Shown here one piece after another: positions 1-48,180 of a stretch of 64,000 nucleotides of DNA (its first letter is position 1; each line of letters starts with the position of its first letter). The stretch lies in NCBI RefSeq assembly GCF_002854065.1, contig NZ_CP024147.1, one strand, 5' to 3'. The position numbers were made by a program, and so were the translations under genes. The stretch comes from Escherichia coli (GTDB lineage: Bacteria > Pseudomonadota > Gammaproteobacteria > Enterobacterales > Enterobacteriaceae). The notes under the pieces are model-generated. The model saw only the letters and a program-made list of their open reading frames with translations, was not told the DNA's origin and did not search any database.

Positions 1-126
1 AAGCAAAACTTCAGACACCTGACATATAAAAAATAATCTCGGTGTGAGATGCTTTACGTCTTCCAAGCCCCCTTCCTTGCCGTAAATGGAAAGATACATC
101 TAATTATAGAATTTATATGTTTTACC

Positions 127-702
127 CTACGGCAGTGCTGGCCATTCAATATCCTGTGCAGTTGACGTATCAACACGGTTCAGCAACACCCGATACTTTT
201 TCCAGGCTTCCAGCAATGAGGTTTCTTCCTCCGTTGCGATTTCCAGATCTACAGCATCCTGAAGTGGCGCAATATGCTCACTGGCTACCTGCATCAGGCT
301 GTTTTTTGTTTCTTCCGCCTCCCGGATCCGGAACAGTTTTTCTGCTTCTGCATCTTTCACCCAGGCTGTGCCGTTCCACTTCTGAAACTCCCCTTCCGGC
401 GATAACCAGGTAACATTTTCCGGTAACGGACCGAGTTCAGAAATAAATAACGCGTCCCCTGACGCTACGTCATAAACCGTTTTACCCCGATGGTCTTCAA
501 CGAGATGCCACGATGCCTCATCACTGTTGAAAACAGCCACAAAGCCAGCAGGAATATCTGGCGGTGCAATATCGGTACTGTTTGCTGGCAGACCTGTATG
601 AGGCGGAATATATGCATCACCTTCACCAATAAATTCATTAGTTCCGGCCAGCAGATTATAAATTTTTATGGTCCGTGGTTGTTCACTCATTCTGAATGCC
701 AT
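127..702 (-). CDS. phage tail fibre assembly protein (Tfa family)
   Basis: 191-aa ORF; recognised as lambdoid Tfa; sits immediately 3' of the tail-fibre fragment. Confidence 0.8.
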
Positions 703-1271
703 TATGCAAGCCTCACAATATAGTTAAATGCGATGTTTTTGACGGTGTTTTCCGCGTTACCAGCAGCGTTAACGGTGATGGTGTGTCCATGTGAACCAAT
801 CGCAACGGAGTGCGTATGAGCACCAATACCGACAGTATGTGCGTGTGCACCTGCGCTTGCAGCAGTGCCGGACAGTGAGTGGGTACTGGTATAATCCCAT
901 TGAATATTTACACCAGTCGCATAATTTCCGATTGCAACGTAAATATCGTAAGTATCACCAGATGTATTGACCCAGGCAAAATTTGTAAACCCTGCCGATG
1001 TGCGCTGCCATAAAGCACCAGTAATCCCCTTCGGATTACCATTACCTGCACGCAAAACAAGTTCAGATATACCTGCCTGTTGAGGTGAACCGACGTTATA
1101 TCCAGCCCCACCAATCAACGTAATTGAAACAACAGAACTCGCCTGCGGCATGGTTACCGTTGCTAATTTGAACCAACCAGCACCACCGCTGAATGACATT
1201 GTTGTTGAGTTAAGCGTACCAATATCTTTCGGTGTCAGTGTTATATCCGCTGAAAGCGCCTTACCATTCAC
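702..1271 (-). pseudogene. side tail fibre, C-terminal fragment only
   Basis: 189-aa open frame ending in the His-rich HxH tail-fibre tip motif; frame opens on GTG with no N-terminal body; lies directly after gene L. Confidence 0.6.
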
Positions 1272-1406
1272 CTTACGGGCAGAAGGTATTCACGCAGGGA
1301 AAATATCTTTCCCCCTCCGGTGTTCTCACCACGAAGCCGCACGACTCCGCTGGCGCACATCGCCGGGCGTGCGCCAGAATCGCTGATTCTGTCTCTGTCA
1401 TGGGAT

Positions 1407-2105
1407 TCACTGCGAAAGTTTGTTAATGGAAAGGAAGCCGCCAAAGTTGCCGACGTTATTGCGAAACTTACAGCCGCTCAGGCATTTGCTGCATTTATCC
1501 TTCGTGATATCGGACGTCGGCTGATCATATTCATCCGCGACCGCCGGACCGTGATAACCGCACTCATCACCGCGATAGGTCCAGGTGCAGGTGTTGGCCA
1601 GCATGATACGTCCCGGAAAAACGGCACCGTCCGTTTCCGTCGGCGTGGACAGTACAAAAGAGGCACTGACCGCGCTCAGTTCGCTGCACTGCTCGATGCG
1701 CCAGCGGCTGATCACCTCCTGCTCCGGATCGGCGTCACTGTTTCCGTTGACGAAGTTCACCGCATCCAGAAAACGGGCGTAAACCTTACGCCGGACCACC
1801 GTTCCTCCGACCAGACTCTGCAGGTCTTCCGCCATCCCGGTGACCATGCCGTGCAGGTTAGAAACCGTCAGTGTCGGACGGGCAGCACTGCCTTTGCCGT
1901 TCAGTTCAAATCCCGTCCCCTGAATGGGATACGCCTGATACTGTCGCCCCTGCCAGGTGACCGGCTCACCTTTATCGTTCTGCTCATTACAGAAAAAGTA
2001 GCGTTCCCCGCCTACCTCGGTCAGGTCGATTTCCCAGAGCACCACCTGGGCTGACTGAGTGAGGCGTGTCGTCTCATGATGTGTTTCCTGTGGAATATCC
2101 TGCAT
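1407..2105 (-). CDS. minor tail protein L (lambda gpL-like)
   Basis: 232-aa ORF closely matching lambda L as recalled (MQDI...CSKCLSGCKFRNN...INKLSQ). Confidence 0.85.
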   Translation of the reverse strand: MQDIPQETHHETTRLTQSAQVVLWEIDLTEVGGERYFFCNEQNDKGEPVTWQGRQYQAYPIQGTGFELNGKGSAARPTLTVSNLHGMVTGMAEDLQSLVGGTVVRRKVYARFLDAVNFVNGNSDADPEQEVISRWRIEQCSELSAVSASFVLSTPTETDGAVFPGRIMLANTCTWTYRGDECGYHGPAVADEYDQPTSDITKDKCSKCLSGCKFRNNVGNFGGFLSINKLSQ

Positions 2106-2114
2106 CAGAGACTC

Positions 2115-2444
2115 CTATGCCACGACCTGTTCAAAATCTGCCGTTATGGTTACCCACAACGCCCCCACGCTTGCCGACCATTTACGACAAACCACCCTGA
2201 TCGGCTTCCAGTCATAAGGTGGCGTCCACTGAAATGCGCGGACGCCACCGTGCCGTTCCAGAAAGGCTTTTAAAGATGGGTGTTCACATTTACGAACACG
2301 TATAGTCACGCTGTAAATCGACAACTGGTTATTCAGTCCCGCCGCACGACGCTGTTCATAACCATCGCCCAGCTTCACTGTCACCACTTTCGGCTCTGAT
2401 ACCACATTCATATCCGGGCGCACTTTCCAGTGAAACGTCTCCAT
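2115..2444 (-). CDS. minor tail protein M (lambda gpM-like)
   Basis: 109-aa ORF, lambda M-like, immediately upstream of L. Confidence 0.8.
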   Translation of the reverse strand: METFHWKVRPDMNVVSEPKVVTVKLGDGYEQRRAAGLNNQLSIYSVTIRVRKCEHPSLKAFLERHGGVRAFQWTPPYDWKPIRVVCRKWSASVGALWVTITADFEQVVA

Positions 2445-4648
2445 TACCGATATGCTCCACTTAACCGACCACCATCACGGGCCTGCTGTTGCATAAAGTC
2501 CGCTGCCGCTTTTTTCCCAAGGTCATAAACCACCTTCAGGGCAGCCGGACCTATCTGCCCGTTCGTGCCATCGTTATTGATCTCGATGTTGTACTGCGGG
2601 GCAAACATCGCCATACCTGAACCACCAATATCCGCCACAACCCCCAGCTTACCGTCAGCACCACGACGCAGTGGCAGAATGGCTTCAGGTCCAGCTTCCC
2701 CCATCACACCCGCGCCTTTTGCAAAAGCAAAAAACGTCGGACGGTTAACCACCGTGCCACTGTAACGACTCAAATCAGCAGACTGATAAATCCCCCCATT
2801 GGCATTCAGGGAAAGGCTGCTGAGATCAAATCCCAGTACACTGCCAATCCCTTTTATCGATTTCATCATGGTTGCCTGCGCCAGGATTTTCGCCATATCT
2901 GACAGCACCGAAGAGGTGAAGGATTTGAAGTTGAGTTTGCCGGTAGTGACAAAAGTTGCCAGGCCATTTCCCATGTTGCTGAAGGCTGATGAGAACACCT
3001 GTTCTGCTGTTCCTGCCGTATTGTCTGCATCCACGGTAAAATCCTGAAATGCACGCAGGACTCCGTTTTTCCAGTTACCCTGCACAACTTCAAGCTGTTG
3101 CCAGTAACGGCGATTCTCATTCAGTTGTCGGTTCAGGCTCTCCGTCAGCGCCTGCTCGGCCTTTCTGTAGTCATCCGTGTTATATGTCCCTTTCTGCTCA
3201 CTATCCCGCCTCAACTGCTCCAGCTGTTGCTGGTATTTCTGGCGAAGACTCAGTTGTACCTGATATCGCTGCCGCTGCTGATCACCCATACCCACCGTGG
3301 CGATATCCAGGTCATGTTGCTGACGCTGAGCGCGCTCTTCTTCAGCCAGTTGACTGGTCAGCTGAATTGTTTTTTTCTTCAGATCGTTGAGTGCCGTCTG
3401 TTTCTGAAGCTCCTGCTGTTTTACATCCAGCAGCGTCAGTGCCTGAATCAGTTCATCTTTACGGGCCAGCACACTCTTTTCATCTGCCGTCAGTTTTTTC
3501 CCGTCCAGATCGCTGATGCGCTGCTGCAGAGCCAGAAGCTGTTTATGCGCTTCTGTCATCTTTTCAGTGGCAATGCCTGCTGACTGTCTTGCAGCAGCAA
3601 TCTGTCCTTCCACCTGTGCCTGTTGCTGACTGTACTGCAGCAATAACCGGGTGGCCTCATCATTACGGGGTTCGCGTGTTTTTTTCTTACCGGATGCCAG
3701 GGCTTTCTCGTAACGTTCATTTTCACGTTGTATCGCCGCATCCCTGACAGCCTGATCGGCGTACTGCATGGCATTAATACGCGCAATTTCACGCTGATGT
3801 CGTGCTGCTTCCGTTTCATTCATCCGGTTCAGTGCAGCATTTTCAGCATTACGGCGTTTCTGTTGCTCCTGATAATTCCGCTCTGCCTGCTCTTTTGCAT
3901 CCTGCAAATCCTTCTGGCGTTTTTTCTCCTGAAGCTCGTTAAGACGCTGCTGATCGTACTCAACCTGAGAAGATGATGCCGTCCAGGGGAGTCTTTTCAC
4001 CCGCGACACTTTCTCCTGTAAAGCGGAAATCTGTTCATCCAGCGAGTCTTCACGACCAATATTCATGGCCGCATCCCAGAAACGACTCCATAAATCAGAC
4101 AGATACTTCAGCGTACTGCCCAGCGCATTGAGGTTATTATCAATATCCGCAGTACGCCGACCGGTTTCCTCTGCCAGTGCAGACATGGCTATCCGTGCCG
4201 CATCACTGGACCGCCCCTGTTCCCCAAGGACGCGTATCTGTTCAAGCTGAGTGGCAGTAAGAAAATGCAGCTCATTGTCCAGAGCCTTCGCGGCATTTAC
4301 AGGATCATCCTTCAGCCGCTTAAACTGATTTATGGTATCGCTGACCGACTGGCCAACCGATCGCTCCATCTGTGCGGCAGCTCTCGCCACCATACGGGAT
4401 GGATCATGAACAGAGTCTGCTGCCTCATGCTTCACACTAAACAGGGCTGGCCCGACATGGTGCAGGGCGTAAACGGGGTTCCCCCTGACAGTCGCAGCCA
4501 CAGGAGTGTTGGCCGCGAGGAGCCGTTTTTTTACTGTGTCCCGGTGAAGCCCAAAGGCCTCAGCGATTTTAAAAACACTCCAGTAATAAGCATCACCGAT
4601 CCCGCTCACATTTGACATAAGCAACTCCATCTGGCAGGTGAAAATCAT
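2444..4648 (-). CDS. tail tape-measure protein (lambda H-like C-terminal two thirds) with a divergent, possibly Nu1/small-terminase-derived N-terminus
   Basis: 734-aa ORF; C-terminus ...INNDGTNGQIGPAALK...RDGG resembles lambda H; N-terminal ~170 aa has an HTH-like segment; ATG at 4648. Confidence 0.65.
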   Translation of the reverse strand: MIFTCQMELLMSNVSGIGDAYYWSVFKIAEAFGLHRDTVKKRLLAANTPVAATVRGNPVYALHHVGPALFSVKHEAADSVHDPSRMVARAAAQMERSVGQSVSDTINQFKRLKDDPVNAAKALDNELHFLTATQLEQIRVLGEQGRSSDAARIAMSALAEETGRRTADIDNNLNALGSTLKYLSDLWSRFWDAAMNIGREDSLDEQISALQEKVSRVKRLPWTASSSQVEYDQQRLNELQEKKRQKDLQDAKEQAERNYQEQQKRRNAENAALNRMNETEAARHQREIARINAMQYADQAVRDAAIQRENERYEKALASGKKKTREPRNDEATRLLLQYSQQQAQVEGQIAAARQSAGIATEKMTEAHKQLLALQQRISDLDGKKLTADEKSVLARKDELIQALTLLDVKQQELQKQTALNDLKKKTIQLTSQLAEEERAQRQQHDLDIATVGMGDQQRQRYQVQLSLRQKYQQQLEQLRRDSEQKGTYNTDDYRKAEQALTESLNRQLNENRRYWQQLEVVQGNWKNGVLRAFQDFTVDADNTAGTAEQVFSSAFSNMGNGLATFVTTGKLNFKSFTSSVLSDMAKILAQATMMKSIKGIGSVLGFDLSSLSLNANGGIYQSADLSRYSGTVVNRPTFFAFAKGAGVMGEAGPEAILPLRRGADGKLGVVADIGGSGMAMFAPQYNIEINNDGTNGQIGPAALKVVYDLGKKAAADFMQQQARDGGRLSGAYR

Positions 4649-4798
4649 GTTTATTTATATATTTCAATTAATTGCAAACTGGTCTAATGACAGGGAGAAA
4701 AAAATATTGTACAGGTGAAAAGAGAAATAACTTTTAATTATCAATAAATTACCAAACATGCTGCCGCCGCCATGGAAATGCAAAAACTAGCCTTTTTC

Positions 4799-4818
4799 CG
4801 CGACGCTCCCGCCCCGTG
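4799..4818 (-). other. cos-like site (candidate cosN region)
   Basis: Minus strand reads ACGGGGCGGGAGCGTCGCGG, close to lambda cosN ACGGGGCGGCGACCTCGCGG as recalled; ~150 bp upstream of the ORF start at 4648, inside a GC-rich island. Confidence 0.4.
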
Positions 4819-4995
4819 GCAGGGGCCCCCACCGGGAGGACCCGACAGCCTGACAGCCGTGACGAGCATCTGATACAGCGCTTTACATAATGGCATAGGA
4901 ATAATTCAGAAGGACATCACAGCATGCCCACACAAATTAGTGTGAGTGTCCTGTTTCTTCCTACGCACAGGACTGACGAGCATGAGGGGAAAATA

Positions 4996-5163
4996 TGCGA
5001 ACCATAAATGCCTCATCTTCAGCAATGCAGCCGGCATCCGAACAGGACGATATTGTAAATTCACCTAATTACGAGGACATTGCAGTAGTTGAATTGCAGC
5101 TCTGTATTAGCCTGACAGTGACAGAATGCGATACTGACTCTGTCACAGGTGAAATAGTTTGAA
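4996..5163 (+). CDS. hypothetical small protein (55 aa)
   Basis: ATG preceded by GAGGGG at Shine-Dalgarno spacing; below the ORF-track cutoff; no recognised homology. Confidence 0.25.
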
Positions 5164-5182
5164 TGATTAGCAGTTATGGTGC

Positions 5183-5389
5183 TCAGTCAACCACCAGGGA
5201 ATAATCCTTCGAATTCTTATCGTGCTTCACCAACGCTGCCTCAATTGCCCTGAATGCTTCCAGAGACACCTGATGTTCTATACATGCAATTACAACATCC
5301 GGGTAACTCATAGAAATGGTGCTATTAAGCATATTTTTTACACGAATCAGATCCAACGAGAGTTCATCAGCAGATTGTTCTTTATTCAT
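5183..5389 (-). CDS. hypothetical prophage protein (68 aa)
   Basis: ATG start with GGAG Shine-Dalgarno 7 nt upstream; divergent from the DUF1398 gene. Confidence 0.5.
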
Positions 5390-5689
5390 TTTGTCGCTCC
5401 ATGCGTTTGCTCGTCATCTAGCGGTTAAAATATTACTTCAAATCTTTCTGCATAAAAGAGGAAAAGTATGAAAGTTTGAGTACATCGACCTTACATACAT
5501 CTGTCGGTTGCATATCCCTCCTGGATGCCAGCAAGGCTCAACTTTGTTACGCAATCAACACTATTCATTAAAAACAGGCTTAATATTTGACATAAATCAT
5601 CAACAAAACACAAAGAGGTCAGACCAGATTGAAACAATAAACACGATAATGCAAACTACGCGCCATCGTATCACATGGAAGGTTAACCA

Positions 5690-6100
5690 ATGGCTCAGGC
5701 TGCCATTTTTAAAGAAATATTCGATCAAGTGCGTAAAGATTTAAACTGTGAATTATTTTATTCTGAGCTAAAACGTCACAATGTCTCACTTTATATTTAC
5801 TATTTAGCCACAGATAATATTCACATTGTGTTAGAAAACGACAACATAGTGTTAGTAAAAGGACTCAAAAAGGTTGTAAATGTTAAATTCTCCAGAAACA
5901 AACATCTTATAGAGACCTCCTATAATAAGTTGAAATCAAAAGAAATCACATTTCAACAATACAGGGATAATCTTGCTAAAGCAGGAGTTTTCCGATGGGT
6001 TACAAATATCCAGGAACACCAAAGATATTACTATGCCTTTGATAACTCATTACTATTTACTGAAAGCATCCAGAAAACTACACAGATCTTACCACGCTAA
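5690..6100 (+). CDS. ydfO: DUF1398-family prophage protein (YdfO-like)
   Basis: 136-aa ORF, ATG with GGAAGG Shine-Dalgarno; position between the cos region and gnsB. Confidence 0.6.
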
Positions 6101-6251
6101 ACCATAACGTCCGGCTTCTCTCACTCCTGAGCCGGACTGCATTGGTTTAATAAAAACCATCAACAATTGTGATTTAGATATTCGGAACCATTCAAATATA
6201 ACAAAACCCCGTAAAAACGAGGTTTATGGATAAATTTTATTATTGAATACA

Positions 6252-6425
6252 TCAGATTAAATTAATCTTGACATCATAGCTTTCAAGACCCGTCATTTTT
6301 TCCCGTGCGGTAAACTGAATACTGGTAACTTCTTTCCCGGTCTTTTTCTTAAGTTCAATAATTTTTTTTGTTATATATTCAGAAATATCTGCTTCTGCTT
6401 TTGTTTTTAAGTCTTCAATATTCAT
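6252..6425 (-). CDS. gnsB: GnsB-family small protein (57 aa)
   Basis: Manual translation MNIEDLKTKAEADISEYITKKIIELKKKTGKEVTSIQFTAREKMTGLESYDVKINLI; missed by the ORF track because it is under 60 aa. Confidence 0.75.
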   Translation of the reverse strand: MNIEDLKTKAEADISEYITKKIIELKKKTGKEVTSIQFTAREKMTGLESYDVKINLI

Positions 6426-6596
6426 CATTTCCTCTTTTAGTCTGTTATGACTTTCCAGTTACACAGTAAATCGATTATATGGTGCAAACGTGTAAAAGAT
6501 AAGATGAAAAATCGCAATAATCAACATACGATAGTCTAAATTTTACACAAACAGACAAAGAGAATTTTCCTGAATTATCAATGCAATAGCATCAAA

Positions 6597-6752
6597 TCAA
6601 CTCAAGAGCCTTATTGCTGCTTCCAGAATTTCTTCTGAAGTAACATGTCGATCCGCGGCTACATAAATGACTTTATGATCTCCGGTCAGAGATGGAAACC
6701 CTGCGGCCATTACAGTAAGGTGTGTTTTTTCGCCATTTGGATATTCACGCAT
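6597..6752 (-). CDS. small prophage protein (51 aa; possibly YnfN-like)
   Basis: In-frame ATG giving MREYPNG...; longer alternatives start at 6827 (ATG) or 6869 (TTG); start uncertain. Confidence 0.4.
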   Translation of the reverse strand: MREYPNGEKTHLTVMAAGFPSLTGDHKVIYVAADRHVTSEEILEAAIRLLS

Positions 6753-6875
6753 GATGGTGTTAACTCCAGTCATCGCTGGCACTACCACTGCTGGTTCAGA
6801 GTTAAAAAAAACTATGATTTTTTTCATGATGTTACCGTAGTATGTGAGTATCCATCGAATAGACACCAAGCAAAA

Positions 6876-6900
6876 AAGCTCCCGAAGGAGCCTTCATTTT
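6876..6900 (-). terminator. rho-independent terminator-like hairpin
   Basis: Minus strand GCTCC-TTCG-GGAGC followed by TTTTTTGCTT. Confidence 0.45.
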
Positions 6901-7098
6901 CACTTTTTTAAATCCAACGACAGACGGCTGGCATTTAAGTATTGTGAAATATTATCAAATGTAATCATCATTGATTTACAAAAGATACATTTTGCCCCGA
7001 AAGGATTCATGTCAGAAACATCAAAAGATGATGTTCTATACTGGGAACCATGACAACACGGGCATCTAAAGTGAATATGGTTTGTAATATTGTCTACC

Positions 7099-7311
7099 TC
7101 AAAGCGCCACTACATGAACAGCGGCAGGACCTTTAGGTCCGTTCTCAATACCAAATTCAACTTCCTGATTCTCAGTTAATGTTTTGAAATCGTTGCTCTG
7201 AATTGCTGAGAAATGGACAAACACATCTTTGCTGCCATCTTTCGGCGTGATGAAACCAAAACCTTTTTCAGGGTTAAACCATTTCACTAAACCAGTCATT
7301 TTGTTAGACAT
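7099..7311 (-). CDS. cspI: cold shock protein CspI
   Basis: 70-aa CspA-family [26 protein letters not shown]... Confidence 0.9.
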
Positions 7312-7673
7312 AATTATTACCTTTTGAAGAAATTAGCCCTTGGGCAGAATGGTCCGAAAAAAAATATCAGAGAGAAAAACCAACAAGGAAATCCCAAGAG
7401 GTACAAATAATAAAATTATAACAATGACTGCTTCAGATAAATTTGTAACAAACCAGAACACCATTAACGCATGATTAACCACCCATAGCAAGGATTACTT
7501 TTGTAAAGAAAAACACAGCAATGAAAGAATAGCTTTATTTATTAATAAAACGTGTCATTCTGATTAAGACCTTTTATCTTACCCTTAAGATTTCAGGAAT
7601 TTTGGCTCATGGAAGAGTCCTTTTTATTTAAATTTTACATTCCGCGATGTAAATGTTCCGATTTAATATTACC

Positions 7674-8698
<1,025 letters not shown>

Positions 8699-8702
<4 letters not shown>

Positions 8703-9010
8703 AGATATTTATGATGAGGACGCTCGTGCTTATTGGCAGGATTTTCAATCTTAAAGGAGTACTGATGCTGCAGATAAGACTCAACTTTTTCTGACAATTT
8801 TTCTGCTACTTCCAGGAAGACTTGCCGGACGCTCCTTCTGGCTGCTGCCTCATAAAACTCCAGCGCAGCTCCTTCAACACGGTCCATGGCGACATCCAGG
8901 TCAAAAATTTCACCGTCAAAGCGTTCTTTGTCCTGTAAGGCTACAGTTACCGTAACTTTGTTCTCAAAATTACGGACTCCTTTCACAACCAGTTCATAGT
9001 CTTGAGTCAT
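8699..9010 (-). CDS. ydfR: prophage protein YdfR-like, located between holin and endolysin
   Basis: 103-aa ORF whose stop overlaps the endolysin start. Confidence 0.65.
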
Positions 9011-9014
9011 TGGA

Positions 9015-9230
9015 TTACTCTCCTCTCGCAGCCTTACGCCTGTCTTCTTTAATCTTGAAATAAAGATTTGTCAGATACGTCAGCAGGCCAAAAACCAGGC
9101 TACCCAGCACACCGATTGCAGCCCACTGTGACGGAGTTACTTTATCGAGTAACTGCAATGCCCAGAAACCAGCATTACCCGCCGATGTGCCATAGGCAAC
9201 ACCTGTTGTTAACTTATCCATTGATTTCAT
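9015..9230 (-). CDS. essQ: phage holin (S-like)
   Basis: 71 aa from [14 protein letters not shown]...; GAGG Shine-Dalgarno; ORF track shows a longer upstream extension. Confidence 0.8.
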
Positions 9231-9449
9231 ATCCTCACCCCGATGTACACGGATGGTGCAATATGTTTGAAAAGATCGGAGTCTACGGGGTAGTTTTGAC
9301 AGCACACGCTGTTCTCAACGGCGCTAAAGAAACATACACATTAAAAATGTGAGTAATTATTTTGAAAGAAAGTCATATATAAAATAATAATACGAGAAAT
9401 GTTTTCATATTTAGTGTACTGTATACGGCCATTTATACAGGAAAAGCCT

Positions 9450-9620
9450 ATGTCAGAACGTAAAGACTCAAAATCACGCCGTAATTATCTCGTTAAATGT
9501 TCCTGCCCAAACTGCACCCAAGAGTCAGAACACAGTTTTTCAAGAGTACAAAAAGGTGCCCTTTTGATCTGCCCTCATTGCAACAAAGTATTCCAGACAA
9601 ATCTTAAAGCTGCAGCCTGA
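9450..9620 (+). CDS. small zinc-ribbon protein (CxxC...CxxC), 56 aa
   Basis: ATG at 9450 with AGGAAA Shine-Dalgarno; cysteine pairs CPNC and CPHC; followed by a terminator. Confidence 0.5.
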   Translation: MSERKDSKSRRNYLVKCSCPNCTQESEHSFSRVQKGALLICPHCNKVFQTNLKAAA

Positions 9621-9680
9621 TTGATTTTATTAGTAACAAGTATTTTTTATATTTTAATAATATATTTAAAGTAGATAATA

Positions 9681-9702
9681 AAAAACCCGCCTGAGCGGGT
9701 TT
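9681..9702. terminator. bidirectional intrinsic terminator-like hairpin
   Basis: AAAAA-CCCGC-CTGA-GCGGG-TTT between convergent genes. Confidence 0.5.
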
Positions 9703-9983
9703 GAGATTGTGGTGCTTTTTGTGGGAGTCATCCACTTACGCACTTTGTTTTGCCATGCCAGCAGTTAGCTTCTGCTGTAAAACTATTCATGCCGCAAACC
9801 TGCACTTCACCACAATGGTTAGCATACTTTTCCTGATTAAGATTTTGCCAAATATGCTGGCCATTGTTTCATGTATTGGACCTCCTTAATTTTTATTAAA
9901 GAAATCCAATATTCACTACTCTGTCCGTATCTCTACTCAGGCATCAGCCTTCTTCGTTATCGTATACAGACGAGCGATGAATT

Positions 9984-10199
9984 TTAATCAGTAATGATGA
10001 CATTTGCTGCTGCAGGACCTTTAGCACCACTCTCTATAGAGAAGGTAACCTTTTGACCTTCAAATAAGGTTCGATAATTATCATTCTGAATCGCAGAAAA
10101 ATGCACAAACACATCTTTACTACCATCAACAGGAGAAATAAAGCCGAAACCTTTATCAGCGTTAAACCATTTTACTAAACCAGTCATTTTATTTGACAT
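9984..10199 (-). CDS. cspB: cold shock protein CspB
   Basis: 71-aa CspA-family [26 protein letters not shown]... Confidence 0.9.
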
Positions 10200-10509
10200 T
10201 CTACATTCCTTAACTTGAGCCTTTCGGCATAAATGGTTTGCATAACAGAAACGACTTCGTACTTAATTGGAGAGACTCAAAGAAGGAATAAGTGAATAAC
10301 ACCTGAAATGAGAACTGCTTTAGTAAACTACTTCGTATATCGTCTGTTCTTCAAACCGACGCAGTCATTAACTCATAGTTGAACATATGAAGCAATGTTT
10401 ATTTTAGACATCCAGCCACCTTCAACCCTATCAAAAAAGTAGTTTTCTCCAGGAACGTGTGTATGGTGCACCAGGTTATCAGTATTAAGGAGTTTTTCTG
10501 TCCCCTAAA

Positions 10510-10715
10510 ATGACAGGAATTGTCAAAAACTTTGACTACAAAAGCAGCAAAGGTCTTATATCCCCATCCGATGGCGTATCGATGCCCAGCTTCAGGTTTC
10601 AGCTCTCAATCTTCGAGATGCAGAAGAAATTACCACAGGATTACGCGTGGAATTTTGCCGGATAAATGGTTCGCGTGGACCTTCAACTCCCAATGTTTAT
10701 CCTGGGATGAGATTC
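10510..10715 (+). pseudogene. cspF: cspF-like cold shock gene, frameshifted
   Basis: [22 protein letters not shown] in frame 1; homology continues as [32 protein letters not shown] in the -1 frame; one base missing around 10573-10578; original stop lost. Confidence 0.65.
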
Positions 10716-10744
10716 AATATCTCTATTGCCCCATTTAAAGCACA

Positions 10745-10775
10745 AAAACCCGCTTATCAGCGGGTTTTCTACTTT
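10745..10775 (+). terminator. rho-independent terminator
   Basis: ACCCGCT-TATC-AGCGGGT followed by TTTTCTACTTTTTT. Confidence 0.55.
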
Positions 10776-10874
10776 TTTCTAAACGTCGGATACACAAAGC
10801 CCATCGTTGAGAAAATCTTATCCATGTTTTTTGAAAAATGCAAACATCATGTCGCCATCTTCAGCAAAAATCAT

Positions 10875-12508
<1,634 letters not shown>

Positions 12509-45704: not shown

Positions 45705-48067
<2,363 letters not shown>

Positions 48068-48180
48068 GGCCTGCTCCTCACCTGATTAATTTTTTCTTTC
48101 TGCTTTGCTTTCGTTAAGCAACTTTTAGCTCACTCATTATTTACCATTTGATAACAAATGTTTGGTCTTTCGTGCCATAT

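Follow-up and report, generated by a model that had tools for sequence, protein, structure and literature searches.

Annotated cargo genes occupy the interval between the lysis cassette and cos of a defective Qin/Tritos-type prophage in Escherichia coli

Introduction

The lysis genes of a lambdoid prophage in E. coli are separated from a cos-like site by close to 3 kb of DNA, and the question raised by this interval is whether it holds genes that have escaped description. We analyzed a 64,000-nt stretch of contig NZ_CP024147.1 (assembly GCF_002854065.1), here referred to as the window, with a focus on positions 4650-7311. An initial annotation made from the sequence alone had assumed that lysis genes normally lie close to cos, and had regarded the cluster of small genes found here instead as the most likely place for uncharacterized content. 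This architectural premise needs correction, since lambda itself carries 2.1 kb with bor, p78 and p79 at this position.

Our analysis indicates that positions 4650-7311 very probably belong to a defective lambdoid prophage of the Qin/Tritos type, where they form the end of the late (Q/pR') operon farthest from its promoter, a variable moron slot between Rz and cos that holds two known modules and nothing else. Over 4 kb the region is 99.8% identical to annotated E. coli chromosomes, in which cspI, ymcF, ynfR, ynfN, gnsB, the DUF1398 gene and a hypothetical 68-aa protein are all annotated. Annotation already covers every real gene of the interval, whether in RefSeq E. coli genomes, in K-12 Qin, in DLP12, in lambda or in Tritos, and the interval contains nothing new. 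The gene identities, homologies, position of cos, synteny of the operon and non-conservation of a 55-aa open frame described below were all observed directly.

Boundaries of the interval and position of cos

The lysis cassette lies entirely on the minus strand and consists of holin (9015-9230), ydfR, lysozyme (8169-8702) and Rz (7674-8172). With the Rz stop at 7674 and the cos cut between 4814 and 4815, the interval from Rz to cos measures 2859 bp, compared with 2075 bp in lambda. The cos site (4803..4843, minus strand) is composed of GGGTCCT at 4843-4837, which we take to be the cosQ heptamer, and the 12-nt cosN end GGGCGGGAGCGT at 4814-4803, which occurs only once in the whole window. The two elements are arranged as at the right end of lambda, as would befit a cos of the functional type, and the linear Tritos genome has its left end at the equivalent of window position 4814 and its right end at that of 4815.

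On the other side of cos, the 5' part of a nohA-type (DUF1441) small-terminase gene (4381..4648, minus strand) is fused in frame to the tape-measure gene, resulting in a single 734-aa open reading frame with Pfam matches to both DUF1441 and tape-measure domains. Mapping of the junction against Tritos identified the fusion as the product of a 10.4-kb deletion; in addition, the Q gene of the prophage is cut short where it meets the edge of an IS3-family element. The lysis genes and the DUF1441 TerS remnant bound the interval in one orientation, placing it within the cargo of the late operon.

Several features of the initial annotation agree with these results, including a cargo (moron) cluster between the lysis genes and what is a genuine cos (approximately 2.9 kb from Rz), the AT-rich character of the cargo DNA (30-40% GC vs. 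approximately 50% in the flanks), and open reading frames that lie at, or within 1 nt of, the positions it had given (the 55-aa frame at 4995-5162 rather than 4996-5163). It had missed two genes, ymcF/ynfQ (6900-7088, with an ATT start) and ynfR (6832-6897), and its 51-aa frame is indeed a gene, ynfN, which encodes 76 aa here and 51 aa in the K-12 form. The description of these genes as individually terminated holds for three units, with terminator-like hairpins 3' of ymcF (6878-6891), gnsB (6204-6225) and ydfO (~6110-6140), but not for every gene. An Rfam scan of positions 4000-11500 (E up to 1) recovered two thermoregulators of the cspA type together with an isrC match located on an IS and nothing else, with no RNA family in 4650-6250. 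In a repeat scan, nothing beyond short matches of 14-21 nt in two copies was detected, and we regard these as chance.

A cold-shock module downstream of Rz

The first module (~7457-6204, minus strand) appears to be a cold-shock operon. Its first gene, cspI (7099..7311, minus strand), encodes a 70-aa cold-shock protein (Pfam CSD, E 1.6e-31; annotated as such in RefSeq and K-12) that is 78.6% identical to CspG. CspI is an RNA chaperone. The cspI mRNA leader and coding region (7072..7457, minus strand) match the full cspA cold-shock thermoregulator model, Rfam RF01766 (positions 1-428; 113.1 bits vs. a gathering score of 78, E 4e-29), and belong to this family. By homology, the cspA-type leader would act as an RNA thermometer, with the mRNA being stabilized and opened for translation at low temperature. 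Beginning 10 nt 3' of the cspI stop, ymcF/ynfQ (6900..7088, minus strand) encodes a 62-aa protein with a CxxC...CxxC pattern that belongs to the YmcF-like family PF23641 (E 6.9e-32, 109.9 bits vs. a gathering score of 27, covering residues 1-62 of 62). The product has the same sequence as K-12 YnfQ and shares 66% identity with YmcF. The gene for this zinc-ribbon-like protein is probably co-transcribed with cspI.

An intrinsic-terminator-like hairpin, GGCUCCUUCGGGAGC followed by U6 (6878..6891, minus strand; −14.5 kcal/mol, z −2.5), lies 3' of ymcF/ynfQ and is overlapped by ynfR (6832..6897, minus strand), a 21-aa small open reading frame identical to K-12 YnfR. Past this hairpin, read-through or separate initiation would lead to production of YnfN (76 aa) and GnsB. 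The gnsB gene (6252..6428, minus strand; 57/58 aa) encodes a member of the GnsA/GnsB family with a full-length match to Pfam GnsAB_toxin (PF08178; E 5e-35, 119.6 bits vs. 27) and 65% identity to GnsA, and is followed by a terminator-like hairpin (6204..6225, minus strand). We infer that ynfN and gnsB are co-transcribed with cspI, although the hairpin between ymcF and ynfN and the 170-nt gap between ynfN and gnsB count against this.

Evidence for expression and for GnsB activity comes from published work on identical or near-identical genes (K-12 and LF82 homologs). In transcriptomes published for the Tritos lysogen LF82, CspI, CspB and YnfN are documented expressed morons, with CspI at 93-fold and YnfN at 27-fold over the prophage background (PMC9928086), and YnfR-SPA was induced by cold shock (PMC6001520). 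Given that unsaturated fatty acids increase when GnsA or GnsB is overproduced, the cold-shock module could plausibly aid the lysogen in the cold through effects on RNA folding and membrane fluidity. A documented connection to cold adaptation is confined to CspI-type proteins, GnsB when overexpressed, and the cold induction of YnfR.

YnfN and the question of a toxin-antitoxin or defense function

The window carries the full 76-aa form of ynfN (6597..6827, minus strand), while the K-12 gene has lost one nt from a run of T and as a result encodes only 51 aa. What is often cited as the 51-aa K-12 protein represents a truncated allele, the conserved protein being 76 aa in length. Structure modeling of the 76-aa form predicted, with confidence, a domain of five strands plus a helix, for which fold searches found no relatives. 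In a distant setting where gnsB is absent, a 60%-identical homolog adjoins a CSD gene, directly downstream of it. This persistent placement suggests that full-length YnfN might be a dedicated partner of the prophage-borne cold-shock CspA paralogs and might contribute to cold adaptation or to RNA handling in a way not yet described, an idea that we consider rather unlikely. Studies in K-12 would miss such a role because the frameshifted 51-aa allele is missing the part of the protein in which three of the five modeled strands lie.

The neighborhood of ynfN and gnsB could also be read as a hidden toxin-antitoxin or anti-phage locus, with YnfN-GnsB resembling the proposed YmcE-GnsA pair or with the DUF1398 protein of the adjacent module as a nuclease-like effector. 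Names and position invite this reading: PF08178 is titled 'GnsA/GnsB toxin of bacterial toxin-antitoxin system', PGAP names the gnsB product 'addiction module toxin', YnfN occupies the slot of YmcE upstream of a gns gene with both proteins being 76 aa in length, and the DNA is AT-rich and sits in a prophage moron slot. However, YnfN and YmcE are unrelated (21.5% global identity with a negative score), and a gap of 170 nt lies between ynfN and gnsB, in contrast to the overlapping ymcE and gnsA; the locus thus has no YmcE-like partner overlapping or abutting gns, and the distant YnfN homolog after a CSD gene has no gnsB at all. In the literature, overexpression of GnsA or GnsB led to growth rescue and not to killing. 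The DUF1398 protein gave a weak PADLOC match to REase_II (E 2.4e-4, 18.6 bits), but this is much too weak, and the candidate acidic residue E49 is a lysine in K-12 YdfO. A search of all open reading frames against PADLOC-DB v2 recovered only this match and one of YbcW to Mem_04 (12.5 bits), with no model passed by YnfN, GnsB, YbcW or YmcF and no protein assigned to a defense system. Across Pfam, NCBIfam, PHROG and PADLOC, no defense or toxin domain was found in any open reading frame beyond the GnsA/GnsB family label, in line with the initial annotation, which had seen no recognizable defense domain. We therefore consider a toxin-antitoxin or anti-phage function quite improbable and retain the cold-shock module as the preferred reading.

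The DUF1398 and ybcW-like genes beside cos

The second module (6140-5183) corresponds to the gene pair that lambda carries beside its own cos, with the DUF1398 gene antisense to late transcription and the ybcW-like gene in the sense orientation. The DUF1398 gene (5690..6100, plus strand, antisense to late transcription) is a homolog of ydfO, ybcV and lambda p78. Its product belongs to Pfam PF07166 (E 3.7e-43, 146.8 bits vs. 22), matches the solved YdfO structure PDB 2HH8 (E 1.5e-66) and is 78% identical to K-12 YdfO. The ybcW-like gene (5183..5389, minus strand), a homolog of lambda p79, is the final gene before cos. Its 68-aa product, encoded between the DUF1398 gene and cos, matches PHROG 657 over residues 1-68 of 68 (E 5e-47), is 91% identical to lambda p79 and accordingly belongs to the YbcW/p79 family; Pfam, PDB and fold searches gave no match.

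The intergenic region from which the two genes diverge contains a PdhR box (5613..5629, minus strand) that matches exactly the DLP12 ybcV/ybcW site ATCTGGTCTGACCTCTT. Divergence from this region suggests that both genes are probably host-regulated via pyruvate sensing. In DLP12, the ybcV/ybcW mRNA is PdhR-dependent and the homolog of the 68-aa gene is transcribed (PMC7660256). The initial annotation had allowed for all of its frames proving to be annotated Qin/DLP12 cargo and for the 55-aa and 68-aa frames being silent; the former is essentially what we found, whereas the DLP12 homolog of the 68-aa gene is known to be transcribed. HMM checks of the 68-aa, 55-aa and DUF1398 proteins (Pfam, PADLOC) brought no defense assignment, the structure check suggested for the 68-aa protein brought no fold match, and YbcW-like, DUF1398 and YnfN proteins are, as it had supposed, of no known function.

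YbcW could alternatively be a cos-proximal accessory factor, with a function in packaging or in the late operon, instead of a moron of benefit to the host. No other sense-strand gene separates it from cos in lambda, DLP12, Tritos, HannyBb or mEp460, and the same applies to a 39%-identical homolog, which is followed after approximately 45 nt by a lambda-like cosQ/cosN and a Nu1 TerS. Furthermore, the YbcW frame is intact and free of indels in five phages, with changes biased to third codon positions, and from this comparison the coding sequence is evidently under purifying selection. Modular recombination alone can, however, produce linkage to cos, and YbcW is absent from K-12 Qin and from Citrobacter prophages, which share the DUF1441 type of TerS. 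In fold searches the protein was structurally unlike any DNA-binding or terminase protein. Both p78 and p79 of lambda are non-essential, p79 lying inside the late transcript, and in the literature a CRISPRi effect on p79 has been put down to polarity. Given this evidence, a cos-related role for YbcW seems highly improbable, and we favor its interpretation as part of the moron cargo.

Exhaustive homolog searches recovered only two truly divergent YbcW homologs, the results being dominated by error-rich versions of the lambda gene, located on contigs of approximately 3.5 kb that we take to be nanopore lambda control amplicon. The possibility that cos-type satellites also carry YbcW was considered and rejected. 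The Nu1-like protein next to it is a true TerS, and the simplest reading of the ybcW-cos-terS block is therefore phage DNA beside an island.

A 55-aa open frame next to cos

The 55-aa frame (4995..5162, plus strand) had been highlighted for its good ribosome-binding site, and a GAGGGG Shine-Dalgarno-like motif does lie 5 nt before its ATG. It is also intact in Tritos with two non-synonymous changes, intact in ~440 E. coli genomes with at least 95% identity at the locus, and matched over its full length by PHROG 4035, as would be expected of a genuine small protein gene that evolved recently in the Tritos/Qin lineage. In all relatives of ~88-90% identity, however, the start is lost and the frame is broken (ATG to ACG with frameshifts or stops in HannyBb, mEp460, PhiR30_1, lambda and E. 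coli STLEFF_47). Substitutions per codon position were 4/7/6 and 8/7/5, which is not the third-position bias of a coding gene. The frame is antisense to the late transcript, has no match in Pfam, NCBIfam or PADLOC, and was annotated in none of the 12 E. coli genomes sampled. A recent gene at this position is extremely improbable; because start and frame are lost in these relatives and codon-position bias is absent, we judge the frame from its sequence evolution to be a spurious, chance one. A conserved non-coding block at 5040-5182 with an 8-bp inverted repeat was also considered and rejected, with conservation (~88%) equal to that of the flanks and a folding z of only −1.6.

The discovery value of the interval is small: it is a textbook moron slot, thousands of E. 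coli genomes have these genes annotated, expression of the region's genes has been documented in a 99%-identical phage, and the 55-aa frame is not worth pursuing. YnfN, YbcW and the DUF1398 protein are nevertheless uncharacterized small proteins of a model phage family, and would be cheap targets for work on prophage-encoded cold adaptation.

Comparison with known systems

The K-12 Qin prophage shares with the window the order and orientation of cspI-ynfQ-ynfR-ynfN-gnsB-ydfO in near-identical sequence, with the same lysis cassette upstream. It differs in having ynfO (DUF3950) where the window has ybcW, DNA homology beginning only at about window position 5612; in its 51-aa ynfN, due to the 1-nt deletion, vs. 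76 aa in the window; and in keeping a fuller nohA, as opposed to the fusion of nohA with the tape-measure gene in the window. Phage Tritos (prophage 3 of AIEC LF82, OV696610) is 99.2% identical from cos to Rz, with the same genes and with cos ends coinciding with window 4814/4815. In contrast to the window prophage, which is minus ~10.4 kb of head and tail genes and has Q truncated at the edge of the IS3-family element, Tritos is a complete, viable phage of 46.4 kb.

In lambda, a DUF1398 gene and a divergent 68-aa gene likewise adjoin cos, the cosQ/cosN layout is the same, and positions 47023-48090 share 88-90% DNA identity with window 5037-6120. The lambda order is Rz-bor-YbcV-YbcW-cos, with bor at the place that the cspI-gnsB cold-shock module takes in the window, and lambda combines a Nu1-type TerS with cosN GGGCGGCGACCT whereas the window combines a DUF1441-type TerS with cosN GGGCGGGAGCGT. 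DLP12 (ybcV-ybcW-nohD) also has the DUF1398 and 68-aa pair by cos, with a PdhR box identical to that of the window.

The cold-shock module is paralogous to the chromosomal K-12 cspG-ymcF-ymcE-gnsA locus, which has the same order of csp, YmcF-like gene, 76-aa open reading frame and Gns (79% identity for CspI/CspG, 66% for YnfQ/YmcF and 65% for GnsB/GnsA). The middle gene product YmcE is, however, unrelated to YnfN, and ynfR and the intergenic gaps belong to the prophage version only, being absent from the chromosomal locus. Citrobacter prophages carry a corresponding CSD-YmcF-YnfN-GnsB operon, likewise located between the lysis genes and a DUF1441 TerS.

Gene Order of the Prophage and Position of cos

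Open reading frame listing and megablast identified window positions 1-11500 as a Qin-type lambdoid prophage of E. coli, with its late genes read along the minus strand. In late-gene order these are the Q antiterminator gene (annotated as incomplete, with the N-terminus missing and the CDS ending at 11258, and truncated where it borders an IS3-family element), cspF (10498-10700), cspB, ynfU, the holin gene (9015-9230), ydfR, the lysozyme gene (8169-8702), the frameshifted Rz gene (rzpQ, 7674-8172), cspI (7099-7311), ymcF/ynfQ (6900-7088), ynfR (6832-6897), ynfN (6597-6827) and gnsB (6252-6428). A plus-strand DUF1398 gene (5690-6100), a minus-strand 68-aa gene (5183-5389) and, beyond cos, the 5′ end only of a minus-strand DUF1441 (nohA-type) small-terminase gene complete the series. 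The top RefSeq match (99.8% identity over 4 kb) is annotated in exactly this way, and at least part of the region is carried by 3481 of 5426 complete E. coli genomes. GC content is 30-40% across approximately 5200-7600 and about 50% in the flanks. The cargo cluster that the initial annotation had observed between the lysis cassette and cos was confirmed.

Escherichia phage Tritos (OV696610, 46,360 bp, linear), prophage 3 of AIEC LF82, matched window 4815-7700 at 99.2%, its last base aligning to 4815 and its first 434 bases to 4814 down to 4381. These ends place cos at 4814/4815, and the interval from Rz to cos is therefore 2859 bp. The minus-strand sequence at the junction is ...GGGTCCTCCCGGTGGGGGCCCCTGCCACG before the cut and GGGCGGGAGCGTCGCGG after it; in lambda, ...GGGTCCTTTCCGGTGATCCGACAGGTTACG precedes the cut and the left end GGGCGGCGACCT follows. 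The 17-mer containing cosN occurs once in the window. The alignments thus show a genuine cos site and fix its position exactly.

A Known Cold-Shock Operon Encodes a 76-aa YnfN

The minus-strand genes from cspI to gnsB, referred to here as Module A, constitute a known cold-shock operon. CspI matched the CSD (E 1.6e-31), and its mRNA scored 113 bits with RF01766, the cspA thermoregulator, for which the gathering score is 78. The ymcF/ynfQ gene (PF23641 match) begins 10 nt past the cspI stop at an ATT, a start also present in K-12; ORF finders using ATG/GTG/TTG therefore detect no more than a 36-aa internal piece (6900-7010), the probable reason that the gene had been missed initially. A GC-rich hairpin followed by U6 lies after ymcF/ynfQ, where the 21-aa ynfR overlaps it; ynfN and gnsB (PF08178 match) come next, and a second hairpin, at 6204-6225, resembles a terminator. 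Cold strongly induces YnfR-SPA (PMC6001520). Transcription of CspI, CspB and YnfN in LF82, the Tritos lysogen, was 93-, 59- and 27-fold over prophage background, respectively, and they were classed as morons for this reason (PMC9928086).

The gene first described as a 51-aa ORF is present, but that length is the K-12 annotation, whereas in the window, Tritos and mEp460 the frame extends to 76 aa. K-12 YnfN (51 aa; 1637954-1638109) comes from an allele truncated by a frameshift, the loss of one T from a T8 run, and full-length 76-aa homologs (52-76% identity) were found in Citrobacter and other Enterobacteriaceae. The comparison indicates that the conserved protein is 76 aa long. Its AF2 model was confident (pLDDT 87), with five strands and a C-terminal helix, and the 25 residues absent from K-12 form three of the five strands. 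A 60%-identical homolog directly follows a CSD gene, and gnsB is not found near it, which associates YnfN with the csp gene and not with gnsB. That full-length YnfN would be a new-fold partner of prophage cold-shock proteins is improbable.

The statement that the cluster has no recognizable defense or toxin domains held: PADLOC on the cluster proteins gave nothing convincing, and the sole toxin label was the GnsA/GnsB family name. GnsB is unlikely to be the toxin of a toxin-antitoxin pair; no counterpart of YmcE, the partner proposed for GnsA, is present in the cluster, and GnsB in excess rescues growth and does not prevent it. Overexpression of GnsA or GnsB is reported to raise unsaturated fatty acids and to rescue cold-sensitive mutants (attributed to Sugai et al., 2001).

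The DUF1398 and ybcW-Like Genes

K-12 YdfO, which has a solved structure (2HH8), shares 78% identity with the DUF1398 protein. Its divergent neighbor, the 68-aa ybcW-like protein, is a member of PHROG 657 and had no match in Pfam, PDB and fold searches. Because its frame is intact and indel-free in five phages with third-position-biased substitutions (6/6/11 and 3/1/8 by codon position), the 68-aa ORF is a real gene. The YbcW family is tiny: exhaustive searches gave two true homologs (54 and 39% identity), whereas most of what they returned was the lambda gene in corrupted copies. Hundreds of “variants” of p79, the lambda YbcW-like protein, carry frameshift-like errors on ENA contigs of about 3.5 kb (hits P0028-P0120 and P0181-P0325). 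Judging from their size and content, these contigs may be assembled from the nanopore lambda control amplicon, and the “variants” inflate the family’s apparent diversity. On a contig of SRR12826347 / GCA_014959845.1, positions 1-5860 encode DUF4222, a DUF927 primase, PerC, a 68-aa ORF, a lambda-E-like capsid protein and an HDPD decoration protein, directly upstream of the 39%-identical ybcW, lambda-like cosQ/cosN and Nu1 TerS. The arrangement resembles a satellite or PICI-like island beside, or embedded in, a lambdoid prophage late operon.

The 300 bp intergenic region between the divergent genes contains a predicted PdhR box (5613-5629), an exact copy of the ybcV/ybcW box of the K-12 prophage DLP12. 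In a pdhR mutant, DLP12 ybcV and ybcW mRNAs are approximately 10-fold down (PMC7660256). The copied box suggests that host pyruvate sensing may control the pair. In lambda, the YbcV-like p78 is non-essential, and the authors who found p79 “essential” by CRISPRi ascribe this to polar effects within the late transcript. Downstream of ybcW, a non-coding block at 5040-5182 is shared with lambda 47945-48090 and holds an 8-bp inverted repeat, GTGACAGA-N13-TCTGTCAC (about 5119-5147); conservation of the block did not exceed that of its flanks, and its folding was weak (z -1.6).

The 55-aa ORF Is Spurious

A 55-aa ORF on the plus strand (4995-5162), between the ybcW-like gene and cos, had also been proposed as a gene, and this was not borne out. 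Its ATG is ACG in HannyBb, mEp460 and E. coli STLEFF_47, where two 1-nt deletions disrupt the frame; in PhiR30_1 the frame holds stops and one frameshift, and in lambda the 5′ half lacks any homology. Substitutions showed no third-position bias (4/7/6 and 8/7/5, from the same alignment as for ybcW). The region reached at least 95% identity in only about 440 of 1925 matching genomes, and the ORF was annotated in none of 12 genomes sampled. A match to PHROG 4035 is probably a product of ORF calling in near-identical phages. These comparisons argue that the ORF is spurious rather than a gene.

Prophage Decay

Relative to Tritos, a deletion of approximately 10.39 kb at the microhomology CGTATGG (junction about 4389-4396) fuses the first ~87 DUF1441 small-terminase codons in frame to the C-terminal ~650 tape-measure codons, yielding a chimeric 734-aa ORF (2444-4648, minus strand). 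The deletion removed all terminase-large, portal, capsid and tail-tube genes, so the prophage cannot package itself, its intact cos notwithstanding. Rz (rzpQ) and cspF are frameshifted pseudogenes according to the annotation of a near-identical RefSeq genome, which is additional evidence for decay. An IS3-family (ISEc31-like) transposase gene begins at 11295, beside the incomplete Q gene (both within 10875-11450), and an Rfam isrC match (RF01387, 150 bits) falls in the 5′ part of the transposase CDS (11327-11449).

Comparison With Lambda, Qin and Other Relatives

The premise that lambdoid lysis genes are closely followed by cos proved wrong, since in lambda 2075 bp separate the end of Rz (46427) from cos (48502), filled by bor, the DUF1398 gene (p78) and the divergent 68-aa gene (p79). 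The initial interpretation was supported in part: the cluster does carry cargo, some of unknown function. Its architecture, however, is normal for lambdoid phages, the real genes are all annotated already, and the lone unannotated ORF is the spurious one.

Lambda 47023-48090 aligns with window 5037-6120 at 88-90% DNA identity, and the DUF1398 gene and divergent 68-aa ORF are thus lambda’s own right-end pair, which DLP12 likewise has as ybcV and ybcW. Where lambda has bor, the window has the cspI-gnsB module. The layout of the latter matches chromosomal cspG-ymcF-ymcE-gnsA (CspI/CspG 79%, YnfQ/YmcF 66% and GnsB/GnsA 65% identity), although the middle gene ymcE is unrelated to ynfN. Citrobacter prophages with another lysis cassette have CSD, YmcF-like, YnfN (76 aa) and GnsB genes at this location, with DUF1441 TerS and TerL after them. 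In the slot of the DUF1398 gene, Citrobacter prophages have unrelated genes. This gene is absent from mEp460, HannyBb and E. coli STLEFF_47, and K-12 Qin has ynfO (DUF3950) in place of ybcW, its homology to the window beginning only at about 5612. Across these relatives, the slot adjoining cos is a mosaic, variable cargo position.
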